A DNA stretch of 64,000 bases from Candidatus Marinacidobacterales bacterium (lineage in GTDB: Bacteria > Acidobacteriota > Vicinamibacteria > Marinacidobacterales > SMYC01). Below, piece after piece: positions 3,414 through 54,552 of this stretch; position 1 is the first letter of the stretch, and the number at the start of each line of letters is the position of its first letter. The translations under genes and the position numbers were made by a program. The notes under the pieces were generated by a model that saw nothing but the letters and a program-made list of their open reading frames with translations, made no database searches and was not told the DNA's origin. The stretch is from positions 1,632,001 through 1,696,000 of the forward strand of contig CBDCYI010000004.1 in the NCBI GenBank assembly GCA_965224085.1, read 5' to 3'.

Positions 3414-4082
3414 ATGCTCCCGCCCGTGACCAAGGATCAAGTGCTTTTCACCGAGCTGCTCGCTCGAAACGATGTGATCCGCTTCGGGGAATTCACGTTG
3501 AAATCCGGCCGTCTATCGCCGTATTTCATCAACGCTGGCCAGTTGCGAACAGGGAGCGCGATTGCCGGTCTTGGCCGCGCTTATGCGGCGCGCATCCTCG
3601 ACAGGAAGCTGCCTTGCGATTTCATTTTCGGCCCCTCTTACAAAGGTGTACCGCTTGCGGTCGCGACGGCAGTAGCGCTTGCCGAGCGCGGACGGGATCT
3701 CGGCTTCGCTTTCGATCGCAAGGAAGTGAAGGACCATGGTGAGGGCGGCCGCTTCGTCGGCACGCAGCCGGAAAGCGGCATGCGCGCGGTCGTTGTGGAC
3801 GACGTGATCACATCGGGCGCCTCGATCCGCTATTCAGTCGAGCTTCTGAGAGAAGCATCGGTGGAGGTCACCGGAGCGGTCATCGCTGTGGATCGCGAGG
3901 AAAGAGGCTCGGGAACGAGAACGACACTGTCCGAGCTCGAAGAGAGCTTGAAGATCCCTGTGCTCCCAATCATCACGGTGAGCGAAATGGTCGAGCACCT
4001 TCACACAAGCGGAAGCTTGAGCGCGGAAATGAAGGCCCGGATCGAAGACTACGTGCGGGAGCACGGAGCGGAGGCGGGTTGA
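3414..4082 (+). CDS. pyrE: Orotate phosphoribosyltransferase
   Basis: FGEFTLKSGRLSPYF, GPSYKGVPL, DRKEVKDHGEGG, VVDDVITSG PRPP-binding loop. Confidence 0.96.
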   Translation: MLPPVTKDQVLFTELLARNDVIRFGEFTLKSGRLSPYFINAGQLRTGSAIAGLGRAYAARILDRKLPCDFIFGPSYKGVPLAVATAVALAERGRDLGFAFDRKEVKDHGEGGRFVGTQPESGMRAVVVDDVITSGASIRYSVELLREASVEVTGAVIAVDREERGSGTRTTLSELEESLKIPVLPIITVSEMVEHLHTSGSLSAEMKARIEDYVREHGAEAG

Positions 4083-49991: not shown

Positions 49992-50364
49992 TGCTACCAA
50001 TCCAATGGTGTCTACGAGGTTGTCGTTCCGGTGAAGGATCTGGCGCGGGCCGAGTCCTTCTATTGCGGTGTTCTCGGACTCGAAGTTGGGATTCGGGACG
50101 AAGAACGGAGATGGCTTTTTCTACGCGCGGGAGGAACGGCGGGGATGGTTGTGCTCCAGGAAAACAAGGCGGGGTTTCCCAAGACTCATTTCGCGCTCGC
50201 GGTGAACGAGGGCGACATAGACGCCGCAGCATCTACGCTGAGGAAGCAGGGGATCACCGTCAAGGGCCCCATATTGATTGAGTGGATGCCCGCGAAATCC
50301 ATCTACTTTCGCCGATCCCGACGATCACGATTTGGAGCTGTGTGCGCTCATTGAACGACGCTAG
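49991..50364 (+). pseudogene. VOC/glyoxalase family protein with two 1-nt frameshifts (about 50002 and 50308)
   Basis: Repaired reading MLPINGVYEVVVPVKDLARAESFY...HFAL...SIYFADPDDHDLELCAL. Confidence 0.75.
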
Positions 50365-50446
50365 CAACAGAACCCTCGGCGGAGCCTCCCTACCGTTTGA
50401 CCCCCTCCTCCCAGGCCGCTACATTCCTCTTTAAATAAGGTTACGA

Positions 50447-50516
50447 ATGGCCCTCACTTCGGGAACCCGCCTAGGCCCCTACGAGATCCTCTCTCCAGTC
50501 GGCAAAGGGGGAATGG
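50447..50516 (+). pseudogene. N-terminal part of a Ser/Thr kinase gene interrupted by IS110
   Basis: MALTSGTRLGPYEILSPVGKGGM(G), which continues as GEVYKAKDTRL at 53155. Confidence 0.92.
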
Positions 50517-50557
50517 ACTCCCCACGCCGGATCAAGAGAAAACGTTCTTCGTAATAG

Positions 50558-51814
50558 TCATCCGCGATTCGCTTTTTTTGTGGGCCACCGGGAGGGGTCG
50601 TAAAGGGTTCCTTGTCGAAGCATCGCAATGGCGATGGGGAGAATGCGGTCCATGACGCCTCTGAGAGCTCTGGCATGGCTGTGGCCTCTGTCACGAAGCC
50701 GGTCGTAGTGTTCTTTGAAGTGGGGGTCGTGCAAAACGGCAGTGCGTGCCCAATGGTGGAGAGCATTATTGAGGGGCAAAGAGCGAGCTCTCCTCATCAG
50801 GATCGTTGGTCGCAACTGACCGCGCTTGCCGCTCTTTTTTGTGACAGGAGCAATGCCGCCGAGAGTCCTGAAGGCGTTGAGATTACGGAGCCGAATGGGG
50901 TCGTGGGCATAGCAGAGCACGGAGGCGAGCACGTAAGCACCGACGCCGGGCAAAGAGGCAAGAATGGCAGGGTCGGAGCAATGCTCGTCGGTTAGTGCTT
51001 GCACGCGCTTGAACCACTTCTCGAGATGCTGGTCGGAGGCACGACGATGTTGTCGAACGAGGAGCAACTGCTGGAGTAGTAGTTGGAGATGCTCGGCGGT
51101 AGCTTGAGTGGTTGCGGTTGCGACCCGGAGAGGTTTTTGTTTGAGGGTATCGAGGATCTTCTCGGGTTTTAGACGTCGGATGCGGTGTTTTTGAGCGAGG
51201 GTCTCAATGGAGTGGCGGCTAAGAGGGTTGGGGCTGGATTCGAAGAAGAGTTTTAGGAGCTCGCAGAAAAAAGCGTCGAGAGCCTTGTCCTTTGGCGCGA
51301 GCGAGACGAGGTGAGGCCAGCAACGAGTAAGGAGTTCTCGGATCTGCGAGCTGAGGGCCACATGGTTTTTGACGAGTTGGTCGCGGGTACTCAGCAACCC
51401 GCGCATAGCGAGGATCTCCGTAGGTGGGAGATGCAAGCGCTGAAAGCGGTGGCCGTCGGTTCTGAGCGAATCGGCGAGAACGAAGGCGTCTCGCCGATCA
51501 TCCTTGGCGCCGCTCATAGAATGCCGGTCGCGGAAACGGTCGACCTGCTTGGGATTGATGGAGAAAATGGCGATGCCGTGGTCAAGAAAGAGCTCGACGA
51601 CGGCCCCATGAGGTTTTTCGATCGCCACCGCGATGCGCTCGGTATCTTGCGAGGTCTCTTCCAAAAGCCAGTCGATGGTTCCCGATAGTCCTTCGCGGCT
51701 ATGGGGGAAGCCTCTCTCCGCCAAGAAGTTACCTTTGGCATCGACCACACTGGCCAAGTGAAGCCATTGACCCAGGTCGATACCGACGAAGAAGTCGTAT
51801 TTGAGTTGATTCAT
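50558..51814 (-). CDS. IS110 family DEDD recombinase/transposase
   Basis: FVGID, AIEKP, INPKQVDRFR, KDDRRDAFVLA, SLPGVG, GIAPVTKKSGK (Ser); alternative start 51826. Confidence 0.95.
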   Translation of the reverse strand: MNQLKYDFFVGIDLGQWLHLASVVDAKGNFLAERGFPHSREGLSGTIDWLLEETSQDTERIAVAIEKPHGAVVELFLDHGIAIFSINPKQVDRFRDRHSMSGAKDDRRDAFVLADSLRTDGHRFQRLHLPPTEILAMRGLLSTRDQLVKNHVALSSQIRELLTRCWPHLVSLAPKDKALDAFFCELLKLFFESSPNPLSRHSIETLAQKHRIRRLKPEKILDTLKQKPLRVATATTQATAEHLQLLLQQLLLVRQHRRASDQHLEKWFKRVQALTDEHCSDPAILASLPGVGAYVLASVLCYAHDPIRLRNLNAFRTLGGIAPVTKKSGKRGQLRPTILMRRARSLPLNNALHHWARTAVLHDPHFKEHYDRLRDRGHSHARALRGVMDRILPIAIAMLRQGTLYDPSRWPTKKANRG

Positions 51815-51840
51815 GGAAGAACTCATTTCCGCCAGCGCAT

Positions 51841-51974
51841 GTGATGTTTCATCGGCCCCTGTACTGGCGCTCGAAGCGCAACTCCCCACTGGATGTCCAT
51901 CACAAAAGAATTGCCGGCACGCATGTCCATTCCTGGCGCTAGGAGCGCAGGGCGACGTATGGCGTTGCCGGCAA
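51841..51974 (-). ncRNA. IS110 bridge RNA core (target-binding loop, then donor-binding loop)
   Basis: Two stem-closed loops, each with a GCGCT-nnn-AGCGC inner hairpin, flanked by guides matching the insertion site and both element ends; transcript ends not determined. Confidence 0.85.
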
Positions 51975-52021
51975 GCTGCTGACGAAATCGAAAATAGTCC
52001 AAGCTCATCGTGATATTTGCT

Positions 52022-52438
52022 CTACCATGGCAATCGGAGTTGTCGCGCGATGCCACGAGTTCGTGCTCGGTTTTTTCTCGGTAGTTTCGGGCGAAGCACG
52101 TCCGAGAGTTTTTCTCGAATGTAAAGAACATAAGGCGGGTCTAGATATTGACTTTGCACTTCCTGGAGCACAGGTGAAAAATAACGAAGGGAGCGAATGG
52201 GCTGCAGTGGCTCCTCATGTTCTTGTAGCTCCCTACGAGCGCAACCCAGAAGTAGGGCACACTCGAATTCGTGTAACGGGACTCCTTGGCGGTAGAGCTG
52301 CGTCGCGATGAAGCGGTCGTCGCGCCGTGGCCGCTCAGGTGTGTTCGGAATGGAAAGATAGAGGTCCAAAATCGTCCGGACGTAATTGTTTTCTGTCAGA
52401 GCATCGCTCGTGAGCGGTTCATTACCCAGCTTCGACAT
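52022..52438 (-). CDS. Hypothetical 138-aa accessory protein inside IS110
   Basis: Intact ORF overlapping the upstream ORF; YVRTILDLY...LYRQGVPL...PIRSLRYFSPVLQEV. Confidence 0.7.
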   Translation of the reverse strand: MSKLGNEPLTSDALTENNYVRTILDLYLSIPNTPERPRRDDRFIATQLYRQGVPLHEFECALLLGCARRELQEHEEPLQPIRSLRYFSPVLQEVQSQYLDPPYVLYIREKLSDVLRPKLPRKNRARTRGIARQLRLPW

Positions 52439-52835
52439 CCTTTAGCCTCCCGCGTCGGCCGCAGATACAGCATTTGGCATATCTGATACTGTCAATCTTC
52501 GTTTTCATTGAATGAGCCATCGGGCCACTAGCTTGAATTTCACGAACTCCTAGACTGCCAGAATTACTGGGGTGAATGAACCCTTGCTCCGTCACTATTT
52601 TCGCCGCCTGGCGTAGACGATAATTCTGTTGCCGAGCCGCGTGGAGTTTTCGTGAGTTGAAACCTTTCTGGTAATTTCGGTTATTTTCGCGCTGGTTCTC
52701 TCGCCGGGTTTCGTCACGGCAGGTTGGACCGCAGTAGCACTGTCCCTGGTAACATGACTTGCAGATGAAGAAAGGCATCCCACAGCTTTTGTTGCGGCAG
52801 AAAAGCCGGAGAAGAACGACAGGTTTGGTGGCCAT
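52422..52835 (-). CDS. Cys-rich putative Zn-finger protein inside IS110
   Basis: CRNKSC, CKSC, CYCGPTC, basic helix, terminal CCICG; start may be 52931. Confidence 0.7.
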   Translation of the reverse strand: MATKPVVLLRLFCRNKSCGMPFFICKSCYQGQCYCGPTCRDETRRENQRENNRNYQKGFNSRKLHAARQQNYRLRQAAKIVTEQGFIHPSNSGSLGVREIQASGPMAHSMKTKIDSIRYAKCCICGRRGRLKDVEAG

Positions 52836-53153
52836 TCGGAACTCAGCAAAGTGCTGGACGATGGCCGCCCGGATGTGAGAGGCTAGCTTCAACTTGTAGT
52901 GGAGCGCCTCCTCCGGGGGCCATCCAAACATCAGAGCCCCGGTCGTTTGTAGCGGCTGGGGCTCACTATTGTCGCACAGCAGGTTCACCCTCTTCTTGCC
53001 GGCGCGAGACGATCTGACTGACTCGCGCCAAAGGCGCGAGAGGATGCTGGCCTCGCGCCAGAGGCGCGGGATGAGGCCTTGTACACAGACATTTCCTACC
53101 GACTCTTCCCGCAACACACGCTTTCGCTGCACTGATGCTTCGGCAAGCGTACA

Positions 53154-54552
53154 GGGCGAGGTCTACAAAGCCAAAGACACTCGGCTCGACCGCACAGTGG
53201 CCATCAAAGTCCTCCCCGAGCACCTCGCAGAAAGCCCCGAACGCAAGGCGCGCTTCGAGCGTGAGGCCAAGGCGATTTCGCAGCTCAATCATCCTCACAT
53301 TTGCACCCTTTATGACGTAGGCGAGCAAGACGGGGTCGATTATCTCGTCATGGAGTACATCGAAGGGGAAACGCTGGCGAACGCGCTGAAGCGCGGTGCC
53401 CTGCCACTCGATAAGGCGCTCGAATACGGCATTCAAATCGCGGATGGTCTGGACACGGCGCATCGCGCGGGCATCGTCCACCGAGATCTGAAACCCGCCA
53501 ATGCGATGCTGACGAAGCCCGGTATCAAGCTCTTGGATTTCGGCCTGGCGAGGCTCATCAAAGAAGACGACGGTCCCGAGACATCCGATGCACTTACACG
53601 GCAGAGAGATCTACCAAGGAAGAATCCATCATCGGGACGCTTCAGTACATGGCTCCCGAACAGCTGGAACGGAGGCCGGCGGATGCGCGGACAGACATCT
53701 TCGCTATGGGCGTTGTGCTGTACGAGATGGTTACCGGAAACAAGGCGTTTGCGGGCGAAAGCCAGGCGAGCTTGATCGGCGCTATCTTAAAAGACGATCC
53801 GCCGTCCCTGTCTGCGTTCTCCCCGATGTCGCCTCCGGCGCTGGACCATGTCGTCAAGACGTGCCTCGCCAAAGATCCCGACGAGCGATGCCAGTCAGCG
53901 GGCGAGGTGGAACGCAACTTGAAGTGGATCCGCGACGCCGGAGCCGATGCCAAAGTGTCTGCTCCAACGGGTGTTACTCGACGCGGGTTCTGGTCGCTTT
54001 GTCGACGTACTCCTGGGCGCCGCGCTCGCGACGGCTGTCACGGCCCTTGTCGTCATTGCGCTCATTCGGCCCGACGCACCGCACGTATCTCGCTTAGCTA
54101 TATCCGCTCCGCTCGGGCAACCCATTTCTATGTCGAATTGGAACGTGGACTTGGCGATCTCACCGGACGGCAGCCGGATCGTCTACGTTGGCCAAATCGA
54201 GACAGGAGAACGACAGCTCTTCATTCGTCGTTTGGATCAATACGAACCTGAAGCTCTAGACGGAACGGGTCCTGACCCTCGGAATCCGTTTTTCTCGCCC
54301 GACGGATCGTGGGTGGGGTATGTTGAGGACGTCCAGCCTCGGCGCCTGATGAGGGTCTCCACCCTGGGCGGTCCGCCACTTGTCATCGGTGCGGGCGTCT
54401 TCGTGTGGGGTGCCAGCTGGGGCGCGGACGACAAAACATCATCTTCGCCGAGCGAGGGCGCCTCCTTCGCGTCTCGGCCAGCGGTGGCGAGCCGGAGATT
54501 CTGGCGGCCGCGGATGGGCTCTTCTACTCCTGGCCGGACGTGTTGCCCGGAC
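53154..54552 (+). pseudogene. Remainder of the Ser/Thr kinase-TM-TolB gene; frameshifts near 53613, 53995 and 54433, truncated near 54552
   Basis: VAIKVL, HRDLKPAN, KLLDFGLA, GTLQYMAPEQ, TM segment, AISPDGSRIVY, PFFSPDG. Confidence 0.9.

Follow-up and report, generated by a model that had tools for sequence, protein, structure and literature searches.

The 64,000-nt stretch of Candidatus Marinacidobacterales DNA analysed here (the window, to which all coordinates refer unless a contig or locus is named) belongs to a 6.87-Mb genome and contains, at 50517..53153, an insertion sequence of the IS110 family that carries two small protein genes besides its recombinase. On direct reading, a Ser/Thr kinase open reading frame (ORF) that starts at 50448 breaks off after ...GGAATGG at 50516 and resumes with GGGCGAGGTC at 53154, where the restart is GGGCGAGGTCTAC, the codons G-E-V-Y. 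The GG at both junctions gives an insert of 2,637 bp with a shared 2-nt core, CC in the orientation of the element. On the minus strand, from its left end (LE) to its right end (RE), the element reads as leader, Cys-rich ORF (ZnF), 138-aa ORF (ORF138), bridge RNA and recombinase. A first-pass annotation made from the letters alone had given this order, the exact ends, the shared GG and the length. The order is right, the ends are confirmed both by the direct reading and by copies elsewhere in the genome, and the gene limits have been refined by comparison of two subfamilies, A and B (Table 1).

A BLASTN search of the own genome with the 2,637 bp gave four full copies, namely the one in the window, two that are 100% identical over 1-2637 (C11:289314-291950 and C5:801194-803830), and one that is 99.85% identical and has frameshifts (C11:626418-629056). 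Internally deleted or truncated copies with the same end bases are also present. Subfamily B, about 87% identical to the window element (subfamily A), is represented by a full copy of 2,600 bp and by three partial copies, whose end bases are again the same. The flank on the recombinase side is ...ATGG in all 10 copies or fragments that keep that end, and the flank at the opposite end starts with GGG in all 8 copies that keep it, as cut. Because the copies share identical end bases, the ends are not a chance reading. Every complete copy has the GG core on both sides, and nowhere does the duplication extend beyond this dinucleotide. A repeat finder detected no terminal inverted repeats (IRs) in the window element; the sole end-proximal inverted pair, 14 nt long and 95 nt inside the RE, is at about chance level. 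Our best explanation, which we consider likely when all its parts are taken together, is that 50517..53153 is an active, multi-copy and precisely bounded IS110-family insertion sequence.

The recombinase matches PF01548 (N-terminal DEDD RuvC-like domain, 2.8e-31, 108.8 bits vs a cut-off of 29), PF02371 (C-terminal Tnp_20, 1.1e-11, 45.4 bits vs 21.3) and the NCBIfam model NF033542, 'IS110 family RNA-guided transposase' (162.8 bits vs 140). IS621 and the bridge-RNA elements of the IS110 subgroup were reportedly described by Durrant et al. in 2024. Motifs picked out by eye contain D17 (GIDLG), E70 (AIEKP), D110 and D113 (KDDRRDA), and the Ser in KKSGK near residue 332, which by analogy with IS621 we take to be candidate catalytic residues. 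By its domains, its missing IRs and its bridge-RNA logic, the recombination system is a regular member of the IS110 subgroup. It departs from that subgroup in core, size and gene content: the core is CC rather than the CT of IS621 and its close orthologues, and the element has 2,637 bp and three protein genes rather than the single gene and approximately 1.2-1.6 kb of a compact element. A 236-aa frame that was considered as a longer Cys-rich gene proved to be non-coding, as A and B differ there by 1-nt indels upstream of the conserved ATG at 52835.

Table 1. Features of the interrupted kinase gene and of the inserted element, in window coordinates
Feature	Position	Strand	Basis or remarks
5' part of interrupted Ser/Thr kinase gene	50448..50516	+	encodes MALTSGTRLGPYEILSPVGKGGM
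Whole element, 2,637 bp	50517..53153	-	RE at 50517, LE at 53153; GG core on both sides; 4 full copies with same ends
Right end, 41 nt 3' of recombinase stop	50517..50557	-	ends ...GCGTGGGGAGT; last 9 nt = left donor guide
IS110-family recombinase, 422 aa	50558..51826	-	PF01548, PF02371, NF033542; start ATG kept in subfamily B
Intergenic region, 195 nt, holds bridge RNA	51827..52021	-	176-199 nt long in 32 loci; subgroups differ in the 5' 45 nt
Bridge RNA conserved core, two stem/internal loop/hairpin modules	51841..51974	-	alignment, complementarity, covariation
Target loop	left target guide with core 51950-51958; hairpin 51936-51948; right target guide 51927-51933	-	ACGUCGCCC (left guide with core); GGAAUGG (right guide)
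Donor loop	left donor guide 51881-51889; hairpin 51867-51879; right donor guide 51858-51864	-	GUGGGGAGU (left guide); GUACAGG (right guide)
ORF138, 138 aa	52022..52438	-	72 homologous clusters; overlaps ZnF by 17 nt
Cys-rich (zinc-ribbon-like) ORF, ZnF, 137 aa	52422..52835	-	14 homologous clusters
Leader, 318 nt, non-coding, structured	52836..53153	-	homologous to region upstream of ZnF in IS21-type loci
Kinase gene continuation	53154..53775	+	encodes GEVYKAKDTRLDRTVAIKVL...HRDLKP...

The partial copies differ in what they have lost. The subfamily A copy at C9:115784-118247 (L005) has a clean 174-bp deletion that takes the end of ZnF and the start of ORF138. A subfamily B copy at C4:1482119-1483630 (L010) is cut to the bridge RNA and recombinase, with the leader, both ORFs and about 210 bp of host kinase gone; its junction reads ...GCTCAG/TGGTAG (slash at the join), and it is a deletion derivative rather than a compact ancestor. 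The truncated B copy at C11:764578-766945 (L007) adjoins 28 nt of another copy's inverted right end, a meeting or rearrangement of two elements.

Bridge RNA and the kinase-loop target

The guides were located by a complementarity scan together with an alignment of relatives. The bridge RNA, of about 135-150 nt, is directly upstream of the recombinase, with the target loop first and the donor loop second. The left target guide (LTG), ACGUCGC-CC, reads in the sense of the left target and core and matches the window site at 8 of 9 positions, and the right target guide (RTG), GG-AAUGG, is antisense to the core plus right target (7/7). In the donor loop, the left donor guide (LDG) is identical to the last 9 nt of the RE (9/9), while the right donor guide (RDG), GUACA-GG, is antisense to the core and to the 5 nt with which the LE opens (7/7). 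In IS621, LTG and LDG are described as pairing with the left halves on their bottom strand, and RTG and RDG with the right halves on their top strand (PMC11208158); the order and strand sense of the window guides agree with this description. A blind repeat finder paired the LTG region with the LE junction and picked up the two loop hairpins as a duplicated module. A further candidate LTG, 'GAUUUCGUC', from a scan that tolerated G-U pairs, was dropped, since the alignment places it outside the loop.

Over 28 distinct intergenic sequences, 98.5% of cells are paired in the two-module structure, compared with 22-42% when the partners are slid by 1-3 columns. The structure was drawn partly from the same 28 sequences, which flatters the slid control; independent of that, four pairs have changed on both sides, a number reached by none of 500 shuffles. 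A permissive Rfam scan of 50000-53700 gave no match, which says only that the curated families do not fit. Furthermore, the donor guides covary with the ends of the element. The RDG is GUAUAGG with an LE tip of TATAC in four loci (L056, L057, L058 and L060) and GUACAGG with TGTAC in 16, so that guide and end are concordant in 20 of 20. The two changes sit more than 1 kb apart, and therefore the recombined unit includes both ORFs. In L058, GTGGGAAGT is the sequence of the LDG as well as of the RE, with matching G-to-A changes. Thus, the placing of a bridge RNA between the 138-aa ORF and the recombinase in the first-pass annotation is borne out by guide matches, paired structure and donor covariation.

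The target loop specifies the 14-bp sequence ACGTCGC-CC-ATTCC, which in the kinase sense is GGAATGG/GCGACGT, or GGA ATG GGC GAC GT, the codons G-M-G-D-V. Among the relatives, all 22 distinct LE flanks translate to the kinase sequence G-x-V-[YF]-x-A-x-D... and all 19 distinct RE flanks to ...Y-E-I-x-x-x-x-G-x-G-G-M; every readable flank is a kinase loop, GxGGMG/xVY (slash at the insertion). The target codons, G-M-G-D-V, belong to the glycine-rich loop of Hanks-type kinases. At least 7 of the 12 insertion sites in the own genome, read by eye, are in kinase loops, and the rest are look-alike sequences. The variable columns of the bridge RNA guides, xxACnUCnCC and GGnAUGG, are the third codon positions of G-M-G-[D/E]-V. 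In the own genome, the RTG of subfamily A is GGAAUGG and three of its seven targets read GGAATGG, and that of subfamily B is GGUAUGG and two of its three targets read GGTATGG. The genome retains 26 uninterrupted six-frame matches to G.G[GSA]MG.V[YFW]; the 14-mer target itself has no perfect match left, three with one mismatch and 70 with two.

Relatives and the connection with IS21

A scan of public genomes and metagenomes with an ORF138 profile gave 85 loci; starting from ORF138, this route is biased. Classified by profiles, 30 of the 85 are of the type seen in the window (Type I), with ZnF, ORF138, a 176-199-nt spacer and an IS110 recombinase. In 43 (Type II), IstB and/or IstA is directly upstream of ORF138. 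Another five have ZnF adjoining ORF138 on contigs too short to reach further, and seven are unclassified. None of the homologous clusters of either protein has a name or a Pfam domain. The distance from the left end to the ORF138 stop downstream of it is 1053-1132 nt in 20 Type I loci in which the bridge RNA is also present. Both ORFs are thus within the same ends in the window and wherever the left end of a closer relative could be mapped, a point that the first-pass annotation had proposed to check. It had named two findings that would speak against its reading, namely close relatives without both ORFs and an IR or target-site duplication (TSD) pair bracketing 52022-53100. No such relatives were found, and no such pair was detected by the repeat finder.

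A limited check that started from the recombinase covered 400 sampled genomes of the phylum and 400 of the class. Apart from the own genome, only two had a recombinase of more than 60% identity; in one (G450, 89% identical) both ORFs are present. The module is accordingly found in all 30 IS110-type loci recovered through ORF138 and in one of the two closer relatives recovered through the recombinase, the other (locus L128 in genome G502) keeping ZnF only. The element at L128 (G502:C95) is about 1.98 kb long and is also in a kinase loop. The other 50 recombinase loci are 27-44% identical and have neither ORF in their 1.5-kb flanks, except for a ZnF-like ORF in L041 and L140. These ORFs (L041:500-1072 and L140:325-897, minus strand, E ~1e-27) are about 0.5 kb upstream of, and opposite to, IS110 recombinases of about 40% identity. 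ORFs of this kind are probably outside that insertion sequence, because one occurs at only one of three copies in G325.

The IS21 family is characterized by the transposase IstA and the AAA+ helper IstB. In the Type II loci, Pfam confirms both IstA (rve, the Mu-transposase C-terminal domain and a helix-turn-helix) and IstB_IS21 (PF01695). The layout is left IR (IRL), leader, ZnF, IstA, IstB, ORF138 and right IR (IRR), that is, four genes between TGT...ACA inverted repeats. In L086, IR arms of 43 nt (488-530 and 3829-3871), starting TGTCGGCGATCATC, enclose all four genes; L084, L085 and the L015/L113 group are likewise IR-enclosed, the L015/L113 elements being about 3.41 kb long. ZnF is upstream of IstA in 19 of the 43 loci, many of the others being cut on that side, and in a few divergent Type II loci it was not detected with this profile. 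The DNA profile of the Type I leader matches the stretch upstream of ZnF in six Type II loci (E 2.5e-7 to 1.1e-5), and the bridge RNA profile has no match in the Type II loci. At L015:193-228, and in the same place in L113 to L116, a conserved leader hairpin AACCCCGGTTG...CAACCGGGGTT followed by TTTTTTGTT is just upstream of ZnF; the hairpin belongs to the part that the leaders of both types have in common. This hairpin and T run resemble an intrinsic terminator, which hints at attenuation in the leader.

The left tip of the IS110-type element (TGTAC...) would be near the position of the IS21-type IRL tip (TGTCA...) when the L113 alignment is extrapolated; the first 11-15 nt of the two tips do not align. 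In a midpoint-rooted ORF138 tree (79 rows, 135 columns, key supports 84-89% by the Shimodaira-Hasegawa-like approximate likelihood ratio test), a single clade of 37 rows holds the IS110-type rows. This clade is nested among IS21-type rows and takes in three of these (L012, L073 and L079). Thus, the idea that the two proteins are an invention of IS110 is not borne out; together with the leader they are common to four-gene IS21-type elements. The window element itself has no IstA or IstB, the genome's only matches to these being at other loci, and no terminal TGT...ACA IRs. The homology of its 1.13-kb left part to the left leader, the first gene and the last gene of the four-gene elements points to a hybrid, an IS21-derived chassis without IstAB that is now moved by an IS110 module.

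Possible functions of the leader and the small proteins

The leader folds better than shuffled sequences (z = -3.0), and among 18 sequences both partners have changed in 6 of its 38 predicted pairs; a conserved hairpin is at 52934-52964. The palindrome CGCGCC-N3-GGCGCG occurs in it twice (53054-53068 and 53024-53038), and its arms could equally be protein operators in DNA. The LE tip TGTAC is accompanied by a -10-like TACGCT (53146-53151), and the RE has a -35-like TTGATC (50530-50535), which in most relatives is TTGACA or TTGACC. An 18-nt pairing of the leader with the donor loop (52916-52933 with 51842-51859, 78% complementary) was rejected as probably due to chance, since leader variants in relatives are uncompensated. 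Assembled contigs from four sequencing runs contain no clean empty site of this very kinase gene; contigs of other kinases join 50491-50496 to 53154 through about 20 letters of other sequence. Contigs from an RNA library touch parts of the element, where carry-over of DNA is possible.

ORF138 is predicted to have five helices (predicted local distance difference test, pLDDT, 79.8; predicted template modelling score, pTM, 0.70), and its IRSLRYFxP motif is invariant. ZnF has an N-terminal Cys cluster (C13, C18, C25, C28, C35 and C39) and a C-terminal CCxC, which in the model, one of middling confidence (pLDDT 69, pTM 0.45), together form a small beta unit, beside two long basic helices (residues 37-78). 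The ratio of nonsynonymous to synonymous divergence (dN/dS) is 0.12-0.44 for ORF138, 0.20-0.65 for ZnF and 0.14-0.28 for the recombinase. It is below 1 for both ORFs in all 11 scorable pairs each, saturated or stop-holding pairs having been left out, and both ORFs are under purifying selection. A homolog of ZnF that is truncated at the N-terminus (C11:499723-500250; L126:3721-4116, minus strand; profile E 8e-27) has as neighbours a ribbon-helix-helix-plus-PIN-like pair, labelled by eye, and fragments of a kinase gene; the locus looks like a decayed remnant of a related element.

How might such an element move? By analogy with IS621, it would excise as a circle that joins the RE to the LE through the CC core. 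The circle junction would be ...GGGGAGT-CC-TGTACGC..., and the restored kinase site GGAATGGGCGAG. The junction would bring the -35 box of the RE near the TACGCT of the LE, forming a promoter. Going by the guides, the DEDD/Ser recombinase moves everything between the ends, including the 1.13 kb of leader and two genes, and the RDG of the IS110 module reads a left terminus that would be near the old IS21 left tip.

What, then, is the function of ZnF and ORF138? We suggest that they may act on the leader, as DNA or RNA, and form a control module, independent of the transposase, through which the long transcript is expressed, outside the recombination chemistry; we put the chance of this somewhat below even. 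A fuller proposal, which is tentative and possible rather than probable, is that leader, ZnF and ORF138 would be a portable, transposase-agnostic control module serving both the IS21 DDE/AAA+ pair and the IS110 bridge recombinase. The bridge RNA would then not come from the tip of the element but be cut from, or started within, a 2.6-kb polycistronic transcript driven by the junction, downstream of an attenuator-like leader gated by both proteins, and the guide would be fixed on a protein motif, with its variation at codon-third positions.

The leader and the two ORFs could instead be inert or self-serving baggage. An IS110 element would have inserted next to or within an IS21-type element and its left boundary would have slipped outward by half-match recognition. 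The captured genes would then contribute nothing to IS110 transposition, and any selection on them would have another purpose, such as a benefit to the host or to the genes themselves. Growth of IS110 loci by flexible boundary recognition, with carriage of cargo, is reported in a 2026 preprint (bioRxiv 10.64898/2026.08.14.744561), and such an origin would agree with the frameshifted ZnF of subfamily B, which is at four sites, with the absence of ORF138 from L128, and with neither protein having been given an interaction or a family assignment. However, the gene order, the 17-nt overlap and the 176-199-nt spacer are kept across relatives whose recombinases have a dS of 0.6-1.5, the dN/dS values argue for selection on both ORFs, and the non-coding leader is conserved too, with compensatory changes. 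Furthermore, the same trio accompanies IS21 transposases in several phyla, which points to a function at the level of the element, and we regard baggage as a somewhat doubtful explanation.

Could the two proteins be direct cofactors of recombination, binding the ends of the element or the circle junction in an architectural or synapsis role on which excision or integration by the IS110 recombinase depends? They are encoded upstream in the same operon-like array, the basic helical hairpin with Cys clusters in the ZnF model could bind nucleic acid, and the leader palindromes are candidate operators. This is nevertheless improbable, as these proteins also travel with a DDE transposase/AAA+ pair of unrelated chemistry, recombinase and bridge RNA suffice for IS621 (PMC11208158), and the B-subfamily frameshift and the L128 element speak against a need for either protein. 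If 52022-53153 were a separate autonomous or non-autonomous element that sits within the left end of a normal compact IS110, this would account for the different, IS21-type origin of the segment and for the B copy with bridge RNA and recombinase only (L010). We consider this highly improbable: no IR or TSD bracketing the segment was found, IstA and IstB are not in the element, the RDG pairs and covaries with the terminus outside the segment, and the full copies all move as a single unit of 2,637 bp. The short B copy is a deletion and not a smaller element, as about 210 bp of the host kinase are missing too.

Returning to the hybrid element with a control module, a number of observations weigh against it. 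The L128 element (recombinase 62% identical) has leader, ZnF, bridge RNA and recombinase without ORF138; its recombinase is cut short by a TGA, and one copy was seen. Wherever ZnF is retained in subfamily B, in three copies, it has one and the same +1 frameshift. Because subfamily B has spread to at least four sites and its retained ZnF genes are frameshifted, and because L128 is without ORF138, neither protein looks indispensable in cis, and the L005 deletion across the ZnF/ORF138 junction likewise counts against an essential role; A copies may complement B in trans. Pfam, NCBIfam, PHROGs and PADLOC gave nothing above noise for ZnF, ORF138 or the IS21-type homologs, the best library match being NF001646 (E 0.006, 16.9 bits vs a cut-off of 117). 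A profile search of PDB sequences gave none for ZnF and only designed helical repeats for ORF138 (E 0.8), Foldseek against the PDB gave no match (best E 2.5 for ORF138 and 3.3 for ZnF), and the ESM Atlas returned only unnamed Acidobacteriota clusters for ORF138. The RE-LE junction would set TTGATC 17 nt from TACGCT, a weak promoter match here, no sigma-70-like promoter inside the linear element passes the scan, and no back-joined circle is present in the contigs of the four runs (contigs only); nor was a circle junction, a start of transcription or an RNA processing site seen. The RDG/LE covariation may be a single evolutionary event in one clade, and the LDG and RE disagree at two positions in L061 and at one in L080, with one difference in L077, where the RE was read by eye. 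At the wobble positions, the guides fit their own flanks no better than those of other loci (permutation, 697/5000 and 868/5000, not significant), and fine-scale covariation is not claimed there. The ORF138 tree does not settle the direction and number of the transitions between IS110 and IS21.

The first-pass annotation had proposed an extended, multi-protein IS110 system whose extra proteins might regulate it, aid excision or replicate the circle. The first part stands in so far as this is an IS110 element with both ORFs inside the mobile unit, but the ORFs are shared with IS21 and do not look indispensable in cis, and the three roles are conjectural. Neither the kinase-loop flanks of the relatives nor the homology to IS21-type elements had been noticed in that annotation.

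Comparison with known systems and significance

In the published description of IS621, the bridge RNA is 5' of the gene, the site is 14 bp with the core at positions 8-9, terminal IRs are absent, and T at position 9 is nearly invariant among relatives (PMC11208158). The window element is like IS621 in its recombinase (DEDD RuvC-like plus Tnp_20), in the placing of its bridge RNA 5' of the gene, in the target and donor loops and the senses of their guides, in its 14-bp site with the core at 8-9 and no terminal IRs, and in having a -35-like box in the RE and a -10-like box in the LE, which would meet across the junction. Unlike IS621, it has 1.13 kb, the leader and two conserved genes, between the LE tip and the bridge RNA, its core is CC rather than CT, and its recombinase has 422 aa rather than 326. 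There are natural IS110 examples that target repeated intergenic sequence or repetitive extragenic palindromic (REP) sequences, whereas the target here is a protein-coding motif of a gene family. ISPpu9 of Pseudomonas putida is an IS110-family element with an extra small RNA gene, Ssr9, modular circles and REP targets (PMC12288879). The window element resembles it in having an extra module within an IS110-family element, but the module consists of two protein genes and a leader upstream, and not of a small RNA gene downstream of the transposase.

The premise of the first-pass annotation that IS110 elements are compact is dated. The preprint cited above describes expanded IS110 loci as a size continuum with diverse plasmid-derived cargo, enriched in resistance genes, and with whole-unit mobility that falls with size (bioRxiv 10.64898/2026.08.14.744561). 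Cargo-bearing IS110 loci and flexible boundaries are thus already known. The window element is like these loci in exceeding 2 kb and in having extra genes inside boundaries recognized by the bridge RNA, and boundary flexibility offers a route of capture. Unlike that cargo, it carries a fixed, lineage-wide module of IS21 origin under purifying selection, in four near-identical whole-unit copies, and no variable, recently acquired, adaptive cargo such as plasmid or resistance genes. The words IS21, zinc and kinase are absent from the main text of the preprint, and its supplements could list such elements. With the IS21 family, the element shares a leader, ZnF and ORF138, whose homologs stand at the two margins, left and right, of elements of the IS21 type; unlike that family, it is without IstA, IstB and terminal IRs. 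A few keyword searches of the literature, which are weak evidence, found neither a conserved protein-plus-leader module in IS110, or its sharing with IS21, nor the four-gene IS21 form, nor targeting of the kinase glycine-rich loop by IS110.

The main interest of the element is its hybrid origin, its displaced bridge RNA and its protein-motif target. The motif GxGGMGxVY constrains the evolution of the guides and gives the element tens of targets per genome, and each kinase-loop insertion knocks out a signalling kinase. If the proposed fixing of the guide on this motif is true, the element would show an RNA-guided recombinase that has been tuned in nature to a family of genes. Bridge recombinases are under development as programmable genome-writing tools, and the displaced bridge RNA raises the question of how a guide is produced away from the 5' end of the junction transcript. 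The conserved small proteins raise the question whether accessory proteins tune bridge systems, and their occurrence, with the leader, in IS21-type elements too suggests that there is a class of accessory proteins of transposons, as yet undescribed, which does not depend on the chemistry of transposition.

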